From an uncultured Actinomycetes bacterium (lineage in GTDB: Bacteria; Actinomycetota; Acidimicrobiia; Spongiisociales; DATADW01): DNA of 64,000 nucleotides. Positions 27,755 through 61,391 of the stretch are shown here, piece after piece. A program made the translations under genes and the position numbers. The stretch is from contig CAWGRK010000006.1 in NCBI GenBank assembly GCA_963824995.1, positions 194,273 through 258,272 of the forward strand, given 5' to 3'. The notes under the pieces were generated by a model. That model saw nothing but the letters and a program-made list of their open reading frames with translations, was not told where the DNA came from and ran no database searches. The first letter of the stretch is position 1, and each line of letters starts with the position of its first letter.

Positions 27755-28410
27755 CCGGCACCTCCCGCGGCTGCCCGAAGTGCCTCCACCGCCGCCACGG
27801 GATCATCGGCACCGAAGACGGCGGTGCCCGCAACCAGGATGTCGGCCCCGGCAGAGCAGAGGGCTCCCGCCACCTCGGTGGTGACACCGCCGTCCACCTC
27901 GATCTCGGTGGCAAGTGCCAGGGCATCGATGCGGCGTCTTGCGGTCTCGATCTTGGGTAGGGCACTGGTGAGGAAGCGCTGCCCTCCGAACCCAGGCTCG
28001 ACCGACATCACGAGCAAGACCGACGCCAGATCGATGTACGGCTCGGCTGCGCCGAAGGGCGTTACCGGGTTGAGGACCAGTCCGAAGTCCATCCCCAGCG
28101 CTGCCGCCTCTTTGGCCAGGCTGGTGGGGTCTGGCACCGCCTCGATATGGATGGTGACCAGGTCCGCTCCCGCCTCGGCGAGGTGTTCGAGATGGGCCTC
28201 TGGGTTGCTGACCATGAGGTGGCAATCGAAGAGGAGCCGGGATGTCATCCGTAAGGAGGCTATTACCGGCATCCCGAGCGACAGATTGGGCACGAAATGG
28301 CCGTCCATGACGTCGATGTGGAGCAGATCGACCACCGGTTCGACCTGGGCAACCGCCTCGCCCAGTCTGCTGAAATCGGCGGCGAGGATCGATGGGGCGA
28401 TCTTGACCAC
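27751..28410 (-). CDS. rpe: Ribulose-phosphate 3-epimerase
   Basis: IAPSILAADF, HIDVMDGHFVPN, MSVEPGFGGQ, EVDGG. Confidence 0.97.
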   Translation of the reverse strand: MVKIAPSILAADFSRLGEAVAQVEPVVDLLHIDVMDGHFVPNLSLGMPVIASLRMTSRLLFDCHLMVSNPEAHLEHLAEAGADLVTIHIEAVPDPTSLAKEAAALGMDFGLVLNPVTPFGAAEPYIDLASVLLVMSVEPGFGGQRFLTSALPKIETARRRIDALALATEIEVDGGVTTEVAGALCSAGADILVAGTAVFGADDPVAAVEALRAAAGGAG

Positions 28411-55478: not shown

Positions 55479-56267
55479 TCAGATCGAGTGGATGGGGACC
55501 CCGGCCTTGTCGAGCGCCAGCTTGAGGCGGCGGTATCCCTCGCGCTTCACCGTCCAGCGCTCGGTGGGACGCGCCTTGACCACGCTGCGGACGACCATGG
55601 TGGACTCGGTAAGTTCCTCGACACCGAGCACTCTGGCCTCCGCCATGAACCTGTCGGCCCATTCCGGGTCTGCGGTGAAGGCGTCGAGTTCCTCTTTGAC
55701 CAGTCCGAAGACCCGATCCACATCCGTGTCGTAGGCGACGCCGATGTCGAACACGATGTCGGCGTACTCCTGGCTCTGGTTGGTGGAGACGACGATGGAG
55801 CCGTTTGGTACGTAGTACACGTTGCCGTCGATGTCGCGAAGCACCGTCACCCGGGGCCTGACCTGCTGCACCTCACCGGTGACGTTGCTGATCGTCACCA
55901 CGTCCCCGATCACGTACTGCCCTTCGGCCAGGATGAAGAACCCACCGATTAGGTCCCTGACCAGGGTCTGAGCACCCAAACCCAGAGCCACCCCAACGGC
56001 CGACCCGACCGCCACCAGCCCGCCGAGCGGAACGCCCCAAATAGCTGCCGCGGTGAAGACGAAGAACACGGCGAGGGCGACCAGCAACAGTCTGCTCAGC
56101 AAACCCCAAAGGGTCAGAGCGCGGGCCTGGGCGTCTGCTTTCCCGCTGCGGGCCGCCACCCGGAGCAACGCCGCCTTGCCCACCCTTCGCAGAATCACCC
56201 ACGTGACCAGGGTGACCAGGATGAGGACGCCGGTCGAAACGACGTCTTCGGTCACGGCCGGGTCCAC
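55479..56267 (-). CDS. Small-conductance mechanosensitive channel (MscS family)
   Basis: ALGLGAQTLVRDLIGGFFIL, GDVV, VPNG, IGVAYDTD. Confidence 0.92.
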   Translation of the reverse strand: MDPAVTEDVVSTGVLILVTLVTWVILRRVGKAALLRVAARSGKADAQARALTLWGLLSRLLLVALAVFFVFTAAAIWGVPLGGLVAVGSAVGVALGLGAQTLVRDLIGGFFILAEGQYVIGDVVTISNVTGEVQQVRPRVTVLRDIDGNVYYVPNGSIVVSTNQSQEYADIVFDIGVAYDTDVDRVFGLVKEELDAFTADPEWADRFMAEARVLGVEELTESTMVVRSVVKARPTERWTVKREGYRRLKLALDKAGVPIHSI

Positions 56268-56302: not shown

Positions 56303-56512
56303 TCAGTCGGGCGGTCCGGGAGTGGCCGGCACCGGCTCCCGCTCGGGGGCGGGCTCGGCCGGTTCGGCCGGTTCGACAGGCTCAGCCGGCTCGGTCTTTT
56401 CCGGCGGTTCGGTCGGTTCCGGCTCCACAGGCTCCGGTTCGATCCGAGCAGGCTCTGCAGGCGCCTCGACCGGTTCGACCTCCCAGACGCGCTTGATCGG
56501 TCCTATGTCCAT
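56303..56512 (-). CDS. 69-aa Pro/Glu-rich peptide (MDIG-start)
   Basis: GAAGGAGG RBS; start overlaps the upstream stop; EP-repeat body. Confidence 0.75.
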   Translation of the reverse strand: MDIGPIKRVWEVEPVEAPAEPARIEPEPVEPEPTEPPEKTEPAEPVEPAEPAEPAPEREPVPATPGPPD

Positions 56513-57810
56513 GCCCGGTTGCCTCCTTCGCCGATCACCGGCACCCGATATCTCGCCTCCAGCCTTGCGGCCACCATCGAGAGCAGCGTCGGAAGCTCTA
56601 CCGGCTCCCCACTACCCGCCAGAAGGGTCGCGGCGTGCCGCTCGCATGCCAGGGCGTACCGATCCGACCTGATGACGCCTACCTTCGGAGGTGAGGGGCA
56701 AAGCTCGCGCACCGCCCTCCGCTTCAAACCGTGCTCACACGCCGTTCGAACCTCGAGCGGACCGACGATCCGGGCCCTCTGGGCTCGGAATCCGCGCTCC
56801 CCCTCGAGCACCGTCCCGGAGAGTTCGACCGCCCCCTCGACGCACAAGCCCGCATCGAGTGGCCAATCCACTCCCCCTGGGTCCCTCAGCGCGTAGATCC
56901 CGCACCGGCAGTCGAGCGATGGGGCGGTGTGCGTGGTCGGCGTGAGTGGGTCGAAACGGCTTCTTCTCCCCGGCCAGCACCTGGCAACGACTTCCTGTTC
57001 GAGCCAGAGATGGTCCACGATGGCGCTGCCCAGGACCGGCTCCCCGGTGCTGCCGCCAACGACGCTGCTCGGCCGAACCACCCATCGCCTGTACCCGAGG
57101 AACGGTTCGATGGTGAATAGGGGGCCCTCGGGTAGCTCGATCGGTGGCCCGAAAGCCCACCCGGCAGACCGCATCCGTGGGACCGGGAGCGGCGGAGGGG
57201 CGGGCGGGCGCTGAGGCGGCTCGTGGCGGGCGCCACCACCGCGCCGCGCAGCCAGCCAGGTTCGCCGCTCGTCGTCGAGCGCGGCCTCGTCGCGCCTCAT
57301 CTGGGCGATGAGGGCGGCGTTCACCCCGGCTGCGACCGCGCCTTCGGTGGTCCGGTCTACTGCGGCGGAACGCCAGCGCTCCCGCCAGACGCGGAGTGGG
57401 CCCGAGACCATCTGCCCCATGGCGGCCCTCGCCGCAGGACGCCGCAGCGCGAGAAGCCGCAGAACGAACCAGCGGATCGGATAGGCGCAGAGGAACCCCG
57501 CCCAGAGCCAGACGGCGAGTCTCGGCTCCACCTTGATACCGTTTTCCGGAGGGAGCATCTCGGCGACCTGCTCGATGAGCGCCCCGAGGAGGACGGCGAC
57601 CATCCCCCACATGAGCCCGAAGGTCACCATCCAGAGTGACACGAAGAGCACGCCGGCCGCCGCCTCGCGCAGCAGCGTTCCCACCCCCGTCACCACGAGG
57701 CCCACCCTTCGCAGCCCCGTCCGCACTCGGGCGTACGCCCAAACCGCCCCCTGCAGCGGCCATGACCCCCAGCGGAGTCCGGCGCCCAATGGTCGACCCT
57801 TGGTAGACAC
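56503..57810 (-). CDS. Hypothetical membrane protein with C-terminal Cys/His-rich domain
   Basis: Two to three hydrophobic segments, Pro-rich linker, GYRRW...C...HTAP..DCRCGIYA...GAVELSGTVLEGERGFRAQRARI; GTG start at 57810 with GGGGGA upstream. Confidence 0.75.
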   Translation of the reverse strand: MSTKGRPLGAGLRWGSWPLQGAVWAYARVRTGLRRVGLVVTGVGTLLREAAAGVLFVSLWMVTFGLMWGMVAVLLGALIEQVAEMLPPENGIKVEPRLAVWLWAGFLCAYPIRWFVLRLLALRRPAARAAMGQMVSGPLRVWRERWRSAAVDRTTEGAVAAGVNAALIAQMRRDEAALDDERRTWLAARRGGGARHEPPQRPPAPPPLPVPRMRSAGWAFGPPIELPEGPLFTIEPFLGYRRWVVRPSSVVGGSTGEPVLGSAIVDHLWLEQEVVARCWPGRRSRFDPLTPTTHTAPSLDCRCGIYALRDPGGVDWPLDAGLCVEGAVELSGTVLEGERGFRAQRARIVGPLEVRTACEHGLKRRAVRELCPSPPKVGVIRSDRYALACERHAATLLAGSGEPVELPTLLSMVAARLEARYRVPVIGEGGNRAWT

Positions 57811-57859
57811 CGTTCCCCCGGTTCTACCAGGGATCAGACGTCCCTGTGACGAGCGCCGC

Positions 57860-59209
57860 TCAGCCATCCTGCTCGTCACGGGGAGGCTTGCCCAGAACCT
57901 CATCGATCTGACTTAGTCGCTCCGCCGCTTCGGCCTCTGCGCCCTGTTCGGTGGGTCTGTAGAGCACGGTGGCTTCAGAGCCTTCGGGTAGATAGCTCTG
58001 CTCGATCAGATGACCGGGGGAGTCGTGGGGGTACCGGTATCCGACCCCATGGCCAAGCTTCCGCGCTCCCCAATAGCCGGTACCTCTGAGGTGCGGTGGG
58101 ACCTGAGCGCCGGGCGTCGCCCCGACCGCCTCGCGGGCGGCGCCCATTGCCTCAGCGATCGAGTTCGACTTCGGTGCCAGGGCGAGATGTACGGCGGCAT
58201 GGCTGAGGGCATAGGCGGCCTCGGGCAGCCCCACAAAGGAGAGCGCCTCGGCGGCTGCAACCGCAACCTGCAGCGACAGCGGATCGGCCATCCCGACATC
58301 TTCCGAGGCGAGGATGACCATGCGGCGGGCGATGAACTCGGGGTCTTCGCCCGCTTCGAGCATGGTGAAGAGCCAGTAGAGGGCGGCATCCGGGTCCGAG
58401 CCCCGGAGACTCTTGATGAAGGCCGAGATGATGTCGTAGTGCTGGTCGCCGGTCTTGTCGTAGCGGACAACCCGCCGTCGCAGCGCCTCGTCCACGTCCT
58501 CGGCCCCGATCGACGTCCCCTGCCGCGACCCGGCGAGCATCGCTGCCACCTCGAGCGCGTTCAGCGCCAGCCTGGCGTCGCCTCCCACCCGGTCGGAGAG
58601 TGTCTGCATGGCCTCCGGCTCGATCCCGAGACCAGTGTCACCCAGGCCCCGCTCCTCATCATCGAGCGCCCTCTCGATGATGACCGCAACATCCTCGGGA
58701 CCGAGCGGTTCCAGCCGGAACAGACTCGACCGGGAGATGAGCGGTGAGTTGACCTCGAAGAAGGGGTTCTCCGTCGTGGCGCCTACCAGCACCACGATCC
58801 CATCCTCGACAGAAGGGAGCAAGGCATCCTGTTGGTTCTTGGTGAACCGGTGAATCTCGTCGATGAAAAGGACCGTTCGCCGACCGTCCTCCTCCAGCCG
58901 GTGCTTGGCCGCAGCCAGCACCTCGCGCACGTCCTTCACGCCGGCAGACGTCGCCGAGAGGACCTCGAACACGGCGTCGCTGCGCTCCGCCACGAGCCGT
59001 GCAAGCGTGGTCTTACCGGTGCCTGGCGGTCCCCAGAGGATCATCGAGAGCGGGCGGCCCGACTCGACCAGACGGCGGAACGCCGCCCCCGGGCCCAACA
59101 GCGCCGGTTGGCCGACCACCTCGTCGAGCGTCTGGGGGCGCATACGAGCCGCCAGCGGTGCTGCCTCCATTCTCCGGGCTGCGCGCTGCTCGGAGAACAG
59201 GTCGGCCAT
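57860..59209 (-). CDS. rarA: Replication-associated recombination protein A
   Basis: PLAARMRP, GPPGTGKT, FIDEIHRF, GATTENP, SAFIKSLRGSD. Confidence 0.96.
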   Translation of the reverse strand: MADLFSEQRAARRMEAAPLAARMRPQTLDEVVGQPALLGPGAAFRRLVESGRPLSMILWGPPGTGKTTLARLVAERSDAVFEVLSATSAGVKDVREVLAAAKHRLEEDGRRTVLFIDEIHRFTKNQQDALLPSVEDGIVVLVGATTENPFFEVNSPLISRSSLFRLEPLGPEDVAVIIERALDDEERGLGDTGLGIEPEAMQTLSDRVGGDARLALNALEVAAMLAGSRQGTSIGAEDVDEALRRRVVRYDKTGDQHYDIISAFIKSLRGSDPDAALYWLFTMLEAGEDPEFIARRMVILASEDVGMADPLSLQVAVAAAEALSFVGLPEAAYALSHAAVHLALAPKSNSIAEAMGAAREAVGATPGAQVPPHLRGTGYWGARKLGHGVGYRYPHDSPGHLIEQSYLPEGSEATVLYRPTEQGAEAEAAERLSQIDEVLGKPPRDEQDG

Positions 59210-59232
59210 CAGGTCAAGCTAGTGACGGCGAT

Positions 59233-59631
59233 TCACCTTTTCATCCGGCGCGACTCGACCATGATGCATGCGTCGGCGAGATAGTCGAACCCGTTCTGCT
59301 GGAGGAAGTCGACGAGTTGGGGGGTATCGGCACCGGGCTGCACCCAAACGCCCTTGTGGCCGAGCGTCATCGCCTCCCGCGCCACCTCGATACCGATCCA
59401 ACCGGGTACGACCAGGTCGATTATGTCCGGTGGCTCGGGAAGAGATCCCAGGTCTGGGTACGCCTTGTCCCCGTCGACGGTCTCCCGGTTGGGGTTGACG
59501 GCGAACACCCGATAACCCTTGCGCTTGATGTCCCGGTAGATCACCGACCCGTACTTGGCGGGATTGTCGGTGGCACCGACCACGGCGATGGTGGTATCGG
59601 CGTCGTCGAGCATCGCGACGAGGTCGTTCAT
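59233..59631 (-). CDS. CoA-binding protein (YccU-like)
   Basis: IAVVGATDNPAKYG, AVNP, VWVQPG, CIMVE. Confidence 0.9.
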   Translation of the reverse strand: MNDLVAMLDDADTTIAVVGATDNPAKYGSVIYRDIKRKGYRVFAVNPNRETVDGDKAYPDLGSLPEPPDIIDLVVPGWIGIEVAREAMTLGHKGVWVQPGADTPQLVDFLQQNGFDYLADACIMVESRRMKR

Positions 59632-59635
59632 TCGG

Positions 59636-61391
59636 TCACGTCTCCTCCGTTGGCAACAGCCTGACGCCCAGTTCGGCGAGTTGCTCCTCTTCTACCGGGG
59701 TGGGAGCCCCGGTAAGGGGATCTGAACCGGTCTGGGTCTTGGGGAACGGCATCACCTCGCGGATGTTTGGCTCGTCGCGCAACACCGCAACCAGGCGGTC
59801 GATCCCGAAGGCGAACCCACCATGAGGTGGGGTGCCATATCGAAGCGCCCGAAGAAACCACCCAAAACGGCTTTCCGCCTGCTCGGCCGAGATCCCGAGA
59901 ATCTCGAATACCCGCCGCTGGACCTCGGGATCGTGGATTCGGATGCTCCCCGATCCGAGCTCGGTCCCGTTGACCACCAGGTCGTAGGCGCGGAAAATCG
60001 CCTCAGCGGGGCGCTCCTCCATAGCGGCGACATCCACCGGGGCGGTGAAAGGGTGATGGGACGGTGCCAGTTGCCCCCCAGCCGTCTCCTCGAATGCAGG
60101 GAAGTCGGTGACCCAGAGAAAAGAGAGGTCGTCGTGACCCTCGGGACGGCCCAATTCGATCCGCAACTGACCGAGCACACCCTGGGCACGCCTCTGCTTG
60201 ACGTCCGCCACCAACAGCAGGGTGTCGCCCTCGACGGCCTCGAGAGAACCGATGACACCCTCGATCTCTCGTTCCGCCAAGAACTTGGAGACGGGCGAGC
60301 GAACGCCGCCACCTTCCTCCACCACCATCCACACCAGACCCGACGCCCCCAGTTCCTTGGCCCGGGCCACGAGCCCGTCAAGCCCGGACCGGGACAGGGC
60401 AATGGCACCGGCGTCGAGTCCTGCAACCGATCCTCCTTCAGAGAGCACGCTGCCGAAACCGGCGAACTCAGTGCCGGCGAACACGGCGGACAGATCCTCC
60501 AGACTCCCTCCCGAAACGCAGATCGGGCTTGTCCGTCCCGAAGCGGTCCATCGCTTCGGACCAGGTCATGCGGGGGAACGGCAGCGGCGGCGCTGAGCCG
60601 GCGCACCGCCTCTACGGCTGCCGCCACCGACACCTCGATCGCTGCCTGGATCTCGGGCTCCTCCCAGAAGGCCCCCTCCAGGTCCAGCTGCGGTGAACTC
60701 GACCTGTCGGTCGGAGCGGAAGTCTTCGTCGCGGTAGCAGCGGGCGATCTGGGAAGCATCGCTCGACCCCGGAGACCATCAAAAGCTGCTTGGAAGAGCT
60801 GGGGTGACTGAGGAAGGGCGAAGAAGCTGCCCGGCTGATGCCTGCTGGGGACGAGAGGTCGTGGGCGCCTTCGGGTGTGGATCGGATCAATGTGGGGGTT
60901 TCGACCTCGAGAAACCCCTGGTCATCGAGCGAGCGTCTGATTGCGGCGACCGCCTTGGACCTCGCCACCAGGTTCGCAGCCATCCGGGGACGGCGCAGGT
61001 CGAGATAGCGGAATTCGAGCCGGGTCTTCTCTCGATCTCCGCCCTGTCGTCGAGTTGGAAGGGAAGGCCCTCCGCCGGGCTGAGGATGGTCAGTGAATCG
61101 CCACCGACTTCGATCTCGCCGGTGGGGAGATCACGGGTTGACCGTGCCCTCGGGCCGGCGGCGGACGATGCCTTGGATGCTGAGGCACCACTCGGAACGA
61201 ACATCGTGCACCGCCGGCACGGCCGCCGGGTCGATCACCACCTGGACGATCCCGGTTGAGTCGCGCAGGTCGAGGAAGGCGATCCCACCGTGGTCCCTTC
61301 GCCGCGAGACCCAGCCGGCCAGGCGTACCTGCCGCCCCTCGTCGCCCACGCCGAGGAGGCCCGCCCGGTCACTTCGGTATCGGTTGCTCAC
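59636..61391 (-). CDS. aspS: Aspartate--tRNA ligase, several frameshifts between about 60500 and 61140
   Basis: [65 protein letters not shown]. Confidence 0.93.

Follow-up and report, generated by a model that had tools for sequence, protein, structure and literature searches.

An Overlapping Gene Pair of Acidimicrobiia Encodes a Domain With Predicted ADP-Ribosyltransferase-Like Topology and a Small MDIG Peptide Predicted to Bind It

Introduction

Several bacterial gene pairs built around an ADP-ribosyltransferase (ART) have been described, among them DarT-DarG, Tre1-Tri1, TreX-TriX, ParT-ParS and RES-Xre (MbcT-MbcA), and ADP-ribosyltransferases are also carried by phages, as in the case of Alt, ModA and ModB of T4. 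Here we describe a gene pair on the minus strand of a stretch of 64,000 nucleotides (hereafter the window) from an uncultured bacterium of the class Acidimicrobiia, in which the gene for a protein of 435 amino acids is overlapped at its 3' end by the gene for a peptide of 69 amino acids that starts with the motif MDIG. With a probability of roughly 0.4, we read the two as an effector-inhibitor pair, that is, as an ART-like, zinc-containing effector held by its cognate peptide, the enzymatic activity of the effector being putative.

The pair has no sequence relation to any of the ART pairs named above and differs from them in both of its members. The partner is a peptide of 27-78 amino acids, with a head of 15 residues and a disordered tail, instead of a macrodomain, a hydrolase or a DNA-binding fold, while the candidate effector, whose toxicity is putative, combines a zinc-knuckle insert with a mixture of Arg, Tyr and Glu and is anchored by a membrane region or a coiled coil. 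With Alt, ModA and ModB of T4 it shares the occurrence in phages but no sequence relation, and its copies in actinophages come with the peptide partner. The likeness to the ART superfamily (SCOP d.166.1, comprising the toxin mono-ADP-ribosyltransferases, PARPs, Tpt1/KptA, Arr, BC2332-like and CC0527-like proteins) lies in the strand arrangement of the core, as judged from the matches of the VIA structure scan. BC2332-like proteins, CC0527-like proteins, AvrPphF ORF2 and Tpt1 are named as families of this superfamily in the SCOP-related account cited here (PMC3000352). A further point of comparison is offered by the LexA-controlled SOS genes of Actinomycetota, whose palindrome is common to a paralogous clade of the family (class 2, see below), while the window pair lacks such a box. 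No description of the family, the peptide or an Acidimicrobiia SOS gene of this kind was found in the open-access literature searched.

Conservation of the Overlapping Gene Pair

The genes on the minus strand follow each other in the order rarA, large open reading frame (ORF), peptide ORF and mscS. The large-protein gene (56503..57810) and the peptide gene (56303..56512) overlap by 10 nucleotides, ATGGACATAG, which run from the peptide start to the stop codon TAG (56505..56503) of the large ORF. A Shine-Dalgarno sequence, GAAGGAGG (56522..56529, minus strand), is located within the end of the large ORF, 9 nucleotides ahead of the ATG at 56512, and GGAG or AGGAG sites precede the peptide start in 8/8 other loci compared. 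An earlier reading of the window from its letters (the sequence-only reading) had placed a protein of about 435 residues between rarA and mscS and had noticed the overlap together with a strong ribosome-binding site; the ORFs and the Pfam matches of the neighbors agree with the former, and the positions just given bear out the latter. As is usual for type II toxin-antitoxin systems, the two genes are adjacent, co-directional, coupled and kept together.

The translation of the peptide ORF begins with MDIGPIKRVWEVEPVEAPAEP and continues into a Pro/Glu-rich tail. Peptides of this type follow the pattern [M/V]-D-I-G-x3-R-[V/I]-x-x-x-E-P plus a Pro/Glu tail and begin at the stop of the domain gene or shortly ahead of it. 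In the 12 nearest loci, which represent 12 genomes (the window's own, five more from its genus and six from other genera), the peptide gene is found directly 3' of the domain gene in every case (12/12), and overlaps of the two genes typically measure 4-34 nucleotides. A thirteenth, more distant locus has MADIGQPEKIIEIMPVKQP 8 nucleotides downstream of the domain gene, and behind 17 more distant full-length homologues of the same order, the next gene encodes an MFS transporter or a coiled-coil protein instead of a peptide.

Conservation within the peptide is confined to its head, MDIGPIKRVWEVEPVEAP (56459..56512, minus strand), of which residues 1-15 are predicted to contact the domain. In an alignment of 26 peptides, M1, D2 and G4 are invariant and I3, R8, E13, P14 and P18 reach at least 90%, while the remaining Pro/Glu-rich tail (56306..56458, minus strand) is variable, so that whole peptides range from 27 to 78 amino acids among relatives. 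The codons of 13 sequences differ synonymously at the conserved positions, with four codons each for G4 and R8 and two to three each for E11, E13, P14 and P18. Because the ORF is kept in all the relatives examined and carries synonymous changes at conserved residues, the sequences indicate that it is more than a chance ORF and that its head is under selection at the protein level.

The deep overlaps have a counterpart in the upstream protein, members of the family often ending in ...WT or ...G(H/Y)R, which is the other frame of ATGGACAT(A/C)GG (23/135 representatives). In the representative P0020, the domain reads in frame into MNIGQPERLWEVEPLP, which could be a natural fusion or an error of assembly or gene calling. 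A search for homologues of the peptide returned two significant matches only, since ORFs so small are rarely called.

The Predicted Complex

The two proteins were co-folded as domain residues 227-435 and peptide residues 1-40, each with its own alignment and alongside three controls. The three runs gave ipSAE values of 0.66, 0.64 and 0.68, compared to 0.00 for the best control, shared at least 95% of their contacts, and had a partner pLDDT (predicted local distance difference test) of 52-56. The mark applied to ipSAE is reached by 116/157 solved complexes and 2/215 mismatched pairs, a calibration that is rough in the present case, as custom alignments were used. Co-folding, which the sequence-only reading had proposed as a check, supports binding of the peptide by the domain at the level of an in silico prediction.

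In the predicted interface, peptide residues 1-15 meet domain residues 227-237, 241, 299, 306, 308-309 and 330-343, peptide residues 8-12 pair with the hairpin strand 331-337, and the surface formed by the conserved residues R241, Y306, E336 and R342 is included. The pair of two Streptomyces phages, which is described below, has Met at the equivalent of Glu336 and Ser at the equivalent of Arg8 of the peptide, a joint change that fits the predicted contact between residue 336 and R8, as a single case.

Predicted Fold and Conserved Residues

AlphaFold2 was run with the family alignment on 228 residues (pLDDT 85.7, predicted template modeling score, pTM, 0.83) and with a richer alignment on a core of 136 residues (pLDDT 89.8, pTM 0.83). 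The core, which corresponds to residues 224-359 (56734..57141, minus strand) and includes GYRRW, CRCGIYA and VLEGERGFRA, is modeled as all-beta, in the order of the GYRRW strand, two short strands, a long loop with the Cys and His residues, the GIYA strand and a long hairpin with VLEGERG at its tip.

Comparison of the models with known structures gave results that depend on the method. Foldseek matched neither model to a PDB entry (best E 0.2 and 0.31), and in BFVD it found only two uncharacterized phage proteins at E<=0.001. In the VIA structure scan of 48,161 chains, of which the best 50 matches are listed, about half of the matches of the long model were of ART fold, the remainder being mostly ADF/gelsolin domains. 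For the core alone, 41 of the best 50 matches were named as, or classified with, ADP-ribosyltransferases: TreX, pertussis S1, PltA, diphtheria toxin and its homologues, PARP1/2/3/4/10/13/15/16, tankyrases, Arr, scabin, LT, DarT, Tpt1, pierisin, CARDS, MTX, cholix, AvrPphF ORF2, BC2332 and CC0527. Another 7/50 were unclassified (CNFy three times, NatRT, MbcT, SAIP and 9ld3), and 2/50 were unrelated. We take these matches to reflect a genuine but distant likeness in topology to the ART fold, short of membership. The resemblance to ARTs that the sequence-only reading had suggested is thereby retained as far as the core matches in VIA are concerned, while Foldseek against the PDB and the profile comparisons add nothing to it.

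Residue conservation was counted over an alignment of 135 representatives of the family. C303, G304 and G332 occur in every one of them (135/135), and the residues of the surface and its surroundings are widely kept (R241 in 126, Y306 in 127, E336 in 88, G340 in 130, R342 in 127 and A343 in 122), as are C278 (129), C301 (132) and P297 (131), with H294 found in 83. R241, Y306, which is part of GIYA, and E336 occur in the correct sequence order for an ART triad (H-Y-E or R-S-E on strands 1, 2 and 5), the order alone being compared. The aromatic-Arg pair on the first strand is presumably placed as in the enzymes of cholera and pertussis type, and we take the G-I-Y-x-A strand to resemble the GIYFA signature of PARPs. 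Of the aromatic-Arg, GIYA and ExE elements on which the sequence-only reading had relied, R241, Y306 and the first Glu are conserved, and the second Glu of ExE is not. The strings that it had quoted, GYRRW, ARC, HTAP, DCRCGIYA, GAVELSGTVLEGERGFRA and CEH...C...CERH, are all present in the translation.

The putative zinc ligands C278, H294, C301 and C303 (56902..56979, minus strand) form an insert before the GIYA strand. Their C...H...CxC pattern fits a structural zinc site, metal binding being putative, and the four ligands of the zinc insert proposed by the sequence-only reading are conserved in 129, 83, 132 and 135 of the 135 members. A nucleophilic role of the Cys in CGIYA, as in a Cys-peptidase, was considered and rejected, the Cys pattern being that of a C3H metal site with no family-wide His partner; a deaminase-like zinc motif was likewise set aside, as the order of motifs and the beta-rich fold appear not to fit. 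A second Cys/His cluster, C358, C371, C389 and H392 (56635..56739, minus strand), is zinc-ribbon-like, with two short hairpins (strands 170-173/178-181 of the 228-residue model), and is found in 72-79/135 members, the paralogous clade lacking it. It is followed by a C-terminal helix of residues 406-421 (56548..56595, minus strand; helix 199-214 of the 228-residue model) which ends in ...RY.V.V.

A Paralogous Clade With a Predicted SOS Box

The paralogous clade, here called class 2, is present in most genera of the order to which the organism belongs. Its members have a coiled coil at the N-terminus, share the core, with the motifs WSPxPVLGFRxW, PHTDGRCGxxxCGIYAxK and GKVVEHxxGYRA, and lack the second Cys cluster. 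A peptide of the type MDIG(E/K)xxRVIxVEP follows the domain gene in 16/18 loci (eight recognized by pattern and eight by eye, with two lacking it), and in 69/80 named loci from the class-2 alignment, one of them cut, a peptide start lies at most 60 nucleotides from the stop. The named loci are almost all titled as metagenome-assembled genomes of Acidimicrobiia, Acidimicrobiaceae or Actinomycetota, and the sets of 18 and 80 loci probably share genomes and are not independent. The sequence-only reading had made its proposal depend on a linkage of the two genes in other genomes, and this linkage is present in the 12/12, 16/18 and 69/80 loci.

Class-2 operons are preceded by a perfect CGAAC-N4-GTTCG, usually within TTGCGAACAyrTGTTCGAT and 0-40 nucleotides before the predicted start. 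This palindrome occurs in 17/18 loci, one box lying at 205 nucleotides and one locus being without it, and GAAC-N4-GTTC is found at the corresponding place in 69/80 named loci (three cut). For S. venezuelae, the LexA operator of Actinomycetota, to whose type the palindrome belongs, is given in the cited source as tCGAAC-N4-GNNCGa (PMC9380542). In two genomes (L071/L072) the class-2 operon lies beside nrdR-lexA, and elsewhere its neighbors are unrelated housekeeping genes. Judged by these boxes, class 2 looks like an almost universal part of the predicted SOS regulon in Acidimicrobiia that had so far gone unnoticed.

At the window pair, no SOS box with at most two mismatches was found near 57800-59700, and the core GAAC-N4-GTTC with at most one mismatch occurs in this vicinity inside rarA only, at chance frequency. 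In the window as a whole, 11 SOS-box-like sites with at most two mismatches were counted against 3.5 expected, the best palindrome being TCGACCACCGGTTCGA at 28328-28343, with one mismatch to TCGAAC-N4-GTTCGA. The tails of several class-2 peptides (L075-L078, L088, L090, L096, L102 and L106) close with a second motif, WPLPLDL or similar, at the end of the acidic stretch, and this motif may serve as a docking motif for a third protein.

Distribution in Actinobacteria and Phages

A word-indexed search gave nine close relatives of the large protein in all, several of which are frameshifted assemblies reading on into MDIGPIKRVWEVEP. An exhaustive HMMER search with a profile of five sequences extended the family to 704 representatives (50% identity) at E<=1e-3, 45 of them at E<=1e-10, nearly all of which match the C-terminal ~200 residues only, and many are stand-alone proteins of ~200 amino acids. 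The anchors attached to the domain differ and include membrane spans in the window copy, a coiled coil in the SOS clade and a LuxR-type helix-turn-helix (HTH) in one of the 135 aligned members, with no anchor in many.

Neither window protein has a match in Pfam or NCBIfam. A Pfam scan of 67 relatives gave no domain family, with one weak, unrelated match to Phage_Coat_B (E 0.0067), and a PHROGs scan of 21 proteins including relatives returned nothing usable, the peptide having no Pfam, NCBIfam or PHROGs family. In the ESM Atlas, the domain falls among unnamed Actinomycetota clusters with no common Pfam 38.1 family, and the nearest Pfam-named cluster, to the window domain and to the representative P0015 alike, is Phage_T4_Y00F (PF26820) at a feature score of 0.78, which is below the meaningful level.

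The domain was found in 82/151 genomes of the order (one of them unpublished) and in 47/301 sampled genomes of the phylum (including four unpublished), with up to five copies in some. Its spread is uneven, with 15/16 genomes in one family, 8/20 in another and 0/12 in two families of the window's class. Among 22 loci from other actinobacterial families, a single peptide of MNIG type was seen (1/22), and the Glu-His motif is kept in 14/22; the motif being kept without a peptide, the conserved surface would serve for more than the binding of the peptide.

A tblastn search of 50,697 phage records found the domain in two Streptomyces phages that are related to each other, GiJojo (genes 5/6; L199 2196..3079) and pSt2308 (L200 844..1721), where it is annotated as hypothetical. 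In both phages, a peptide gene of MNIG type for MNIGNIVSTVQSEPL follows with an overlap of 4 nucleotides, and a ribbon-helix-helix gene, also annotated as hypothetical, is located downstream of the pair. The sequence-only reading had mentioned similar pairs in actinobacteria and their phages, and this proved accurate, with many actinobacterial loci and both of the Streptomyces phage matches (2/2) carrying the pair.

A third arrangement occurs in the organism's own genome, as a short core-only paralogue, ...HCTCGFYVRY...IELHAHGMRAE..., encoded at L051 6021..6711 on the minus strand (G000:C6 ~35.0-35.7 kb). Here the small ORF, MKRRQQAPKPLVGSLDGPSRTIIVEPVAEPVP, whose product has a Pro/Glu tail, precedes the domain gene instead of following it, and the motif of this small product lies 14 residues in from its N-terminus. 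At least one further genome of the genus (L055) shows the arrangement as well, and no SOS box was found at this second, core-only paralogue of the genus. The organism's own genome also encodes a homologue of the Arr-type rifampin ADP-ribosyltransferase (PF12120, E 9.8e-47; G000:C3:120720-121016), which has no sequence kinship with the domain.

Gene Neighborhood and Protein Architecture

The upstream neighbor of the pair is a MgsA/RarA gene (57860..59209, minus strand; PF12002, 1.4e-62), and the downstream neighbor is a gene for an MscS-type channel (55479..56267, minus strand; PF00924, 6.8e-17). Synteny with rarA and mscS is restricted to the genus and gene neighborhoods vary otherwise, so that a specific functional link to rarA, which was considered, has been dropped: the synteny with rarA does not extend further. 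A scan for promoters and terminators found no promoter-like site around the pair and two terminator-like sites, a number not above that in shuffled sequence, and neither kind of site stands between the pair and rarA or mscS. RNA libraries from a single rhizosphere study include contigs that match stretches of the pair with 90-99% likeness, and an in-frame deletion of 9 nucleotides in the peptide tail (at 56355) is present in one of them. These contigs are a weak indication of expression in relatives, which does not extend to the window copy itself, and stretches left uncovered carry no meaning.

The frame of the large ORF spans 56503..57903, and its first ATG would give a protein of 466 amino acids. 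The GTG at 57810, from which the 435 residues are counted, is preceded in frame by ATGs at 57867 and 57903; homologues were found for the protein. The sequence GRTGG(T/A)VST, upstream of the GTG, is conserved in the genus, and the ATG at 57867 overlaps the stop codon of rarA, ATGGCTGA (57860-57867); the start is therefore uncertain, and the protein may have 454 amino acids. If the ATG at 57867 is used, translation of the large ORF would be coupled to that of rarA.

A hydropathy scan located hydrophobic stretches at residues ~36-88 and ~98-122, within a putative membrane-anchor region of residues ~36-122 (57445..57705, minus strand) that probably forms two spans with a short acidic loop outside. 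The N-terminus carries +7/0 charges, the loop 80-98 two positive and four negative, and the segment beyond residue 122 eight positive and three negative charges. By the positive-inside rule, the C-terminal ~300 residues would lie in the cytoplasm, a location which suits a Cys/His-rich domain and a peptide with no signal sequence. The region between anchor and core, a basic helical linker and Pro-rich hinge of residues 123-227 (57130..57444, minus strand), is conserved in close relatives only.

Proposed Mechanism and Alternative Readings

If the pair is an effector with its inhibitor, the large protein would be held in the membrane by its anchor and extend its C-terminal part into the cytoplasm. 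This part would be a zinc-containing domain of an undescribed family, with the strand arrangement of ARTs in its core and, in order, an Arg on the first strand (GYR), the GIYA strand right after the Cys-x-Cys knuckle, a Glu at the tip of the hairpin and Gly-x-Arg-Ala. The downstream gene, probably translated by coupling, would supply the peptide, residues 1-15 of which are predicted to dock as an extra beta-strand on the hairpin and to cover the Arg/Tyr/Glu/Arg surface, while the acidic Pro/Glu tail would stay disordered. The peptide would hold the ART-like domain shut, and once it is lost or displaced, the domain would become active on a target in the cell, probably with the use of NAD+. The structure of the genes, the conservation of the pair and the breadth of the family are established by the sequences, and fold and binding mode enter this scheme as predictions of the models; the presence of zinc, the inhibition, the reaction with NAD+ and the nature of the target are inferred. 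The system would be of the kind of an ART-fold effector with a cognate binding partner, and it might prove to be more. A broader version appears doubtful in its full extent: a widespread system of actinobacteria and actinophages, made of a diverged zinc ART with genuine NAD+-dependent chemistry and an MDIG micro-protein gating its active site, in which the SOS branch would act as a DNA-damage effector and the window copy would be constitutive, membrane-tethered and co-transcribed with rarA.

Several findings weigh against an ART-like effector held by its peptide. The likeness to ARTs is judged from the make-up of the VIA matches and not from a residue-level superposition on a known ART, and no sequence or profile relation to any ART family was found by Pfam, by a profile search of the PDB or by hhalign. 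In particular, Pfam at E<=10 gave no recurrent family among the 135 alignment members, the family profile had no match among all PDB sequences at E<=10, and hhalign against an alignment of 13 Arr proteins, Arr being the one ART family so compared, gave a probability of 0.1%. The motif set is a hybrid of Arg, Tyr and Glu with no S-T-S, and of ExE the first Glu alone is conserved. PADLOC (PADLOC-DB 2.0) recognized 0 families among nine proteins scanned, including both window proteins. The genus-conserved gene run hisS-aspS-rarA-X-peptide-mscS-alaS is a housekeeping context, and the window copy is not within an obvious mobile or defense island. Finally, beyond its head of 15-18 residues the peptide consists of the Pro/Glu tail and lacks the DNA-binding part that most type II antitoxins possess.

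Another reading, which we consider unlikely, takes the domain as a scaffold, that is, as a non-catalytic, ART-like pseudo-enzyme which holds the MDIG head and thereby tethers the acidic tail, as the actual functional part, to the membrane in the window copy or to a coiled coil in the SOS-regulated paralogues, so that another protein is recruited or blocked there by the tail. As a scaffold would have it, the predicted interface with the peptide falls on the conserved surface, and Glu336, conserved in 88/135 members only, is kept in 22/23 representatives whose C-terminal ends are overlapped by MDIG, compared to 66/112 others. The WPLPLDL of some tails, which resembles a docking motif, the different anchors (membrane spans, coiled coil, one LuxR-type HTH) and the inactive ART-fold domains among the structural neighbors (the TASOR pseudo-PARP and PARP13) are also consistent with it. 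However, both the length and the sequence of the tail are hypervariable, which would be unusual for a working part, and in most members outside Acidimicrobiia, Arg, Tyr, Glu-His and Arg are kept although the peptide is missing.

It is less likely still that the domain has a different chemistry, as a zinc-dependent module for the binding of nucleic acids or proteins, or as a hydrolase, and shares with ARTs the strand arrangement only; 41/50 ART matches with two clearly unrelated ones would be hard to obtain by chance from 48,161 chains, and among the matches of the core no second class of fold recurs. Most improbable is an enzyme-substrate pair in which the peptide is modified at D2, R8 or E13, for example by ADP-ribosylation, to yield a signal or product: the invariant extreme N-terminus (M1, D2, G4), the predicted position in a cleft beside the putative zinc site and Arg/Tyr/Glu, and a conserved head with a variable tail, reminiscent of a leader-core layout, would suit it, but a stoichiometric, translationally coupled arrangement is more typical of tight complexes, no conserved export, protease or tailoring genes lie nearby, the Pro/Glu tails are unlike known modified-peptide cores, and the phage copy lacks R8. 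As for ribosomally synthesized and post-translationally modified peptides in general, no recognized enzyme family of such systems was found, and the neighbors are housekeeping genes that vary between genera. Of the sequence-only reading's suggestions of a toxin-antitoxin, defense or peptide-modification module, the coupled and conserved pair agrees with the first, while PADLOC recognized no defense system for the second and no tailoring enzyme family was recognized for the third.

Implications

If the reading as an effector-inhibitor pair is correct, the domain would represent a new branch of the ART superfamily, marked by its zinc insert and by the mixture of Arg, Tyr and Glu, and the peptide a new type of partner, an almost never annotated micro-protein whose 15 N-terminal residues serve as a plug. 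With its 704 representatives at 50% identity, the family is large; it has no Pfam family and is common to hosts and Streptomyces phages. Even if the domain is non-catalytic, a deeply conserved, overlapping micro-gene provides a clean case for the annotation of small proteins, the overlap fixing the C-terminal letters of the upstream protein (…WT, …GHR). The SOS clade is a candidate for a DNA-damage effector beyond the usual repair genes in Acidimicrobiia, a class with few cultured members, and if the proposed activity is real, this branch might halt growth, division or replication by ADP-ribosylating its target.

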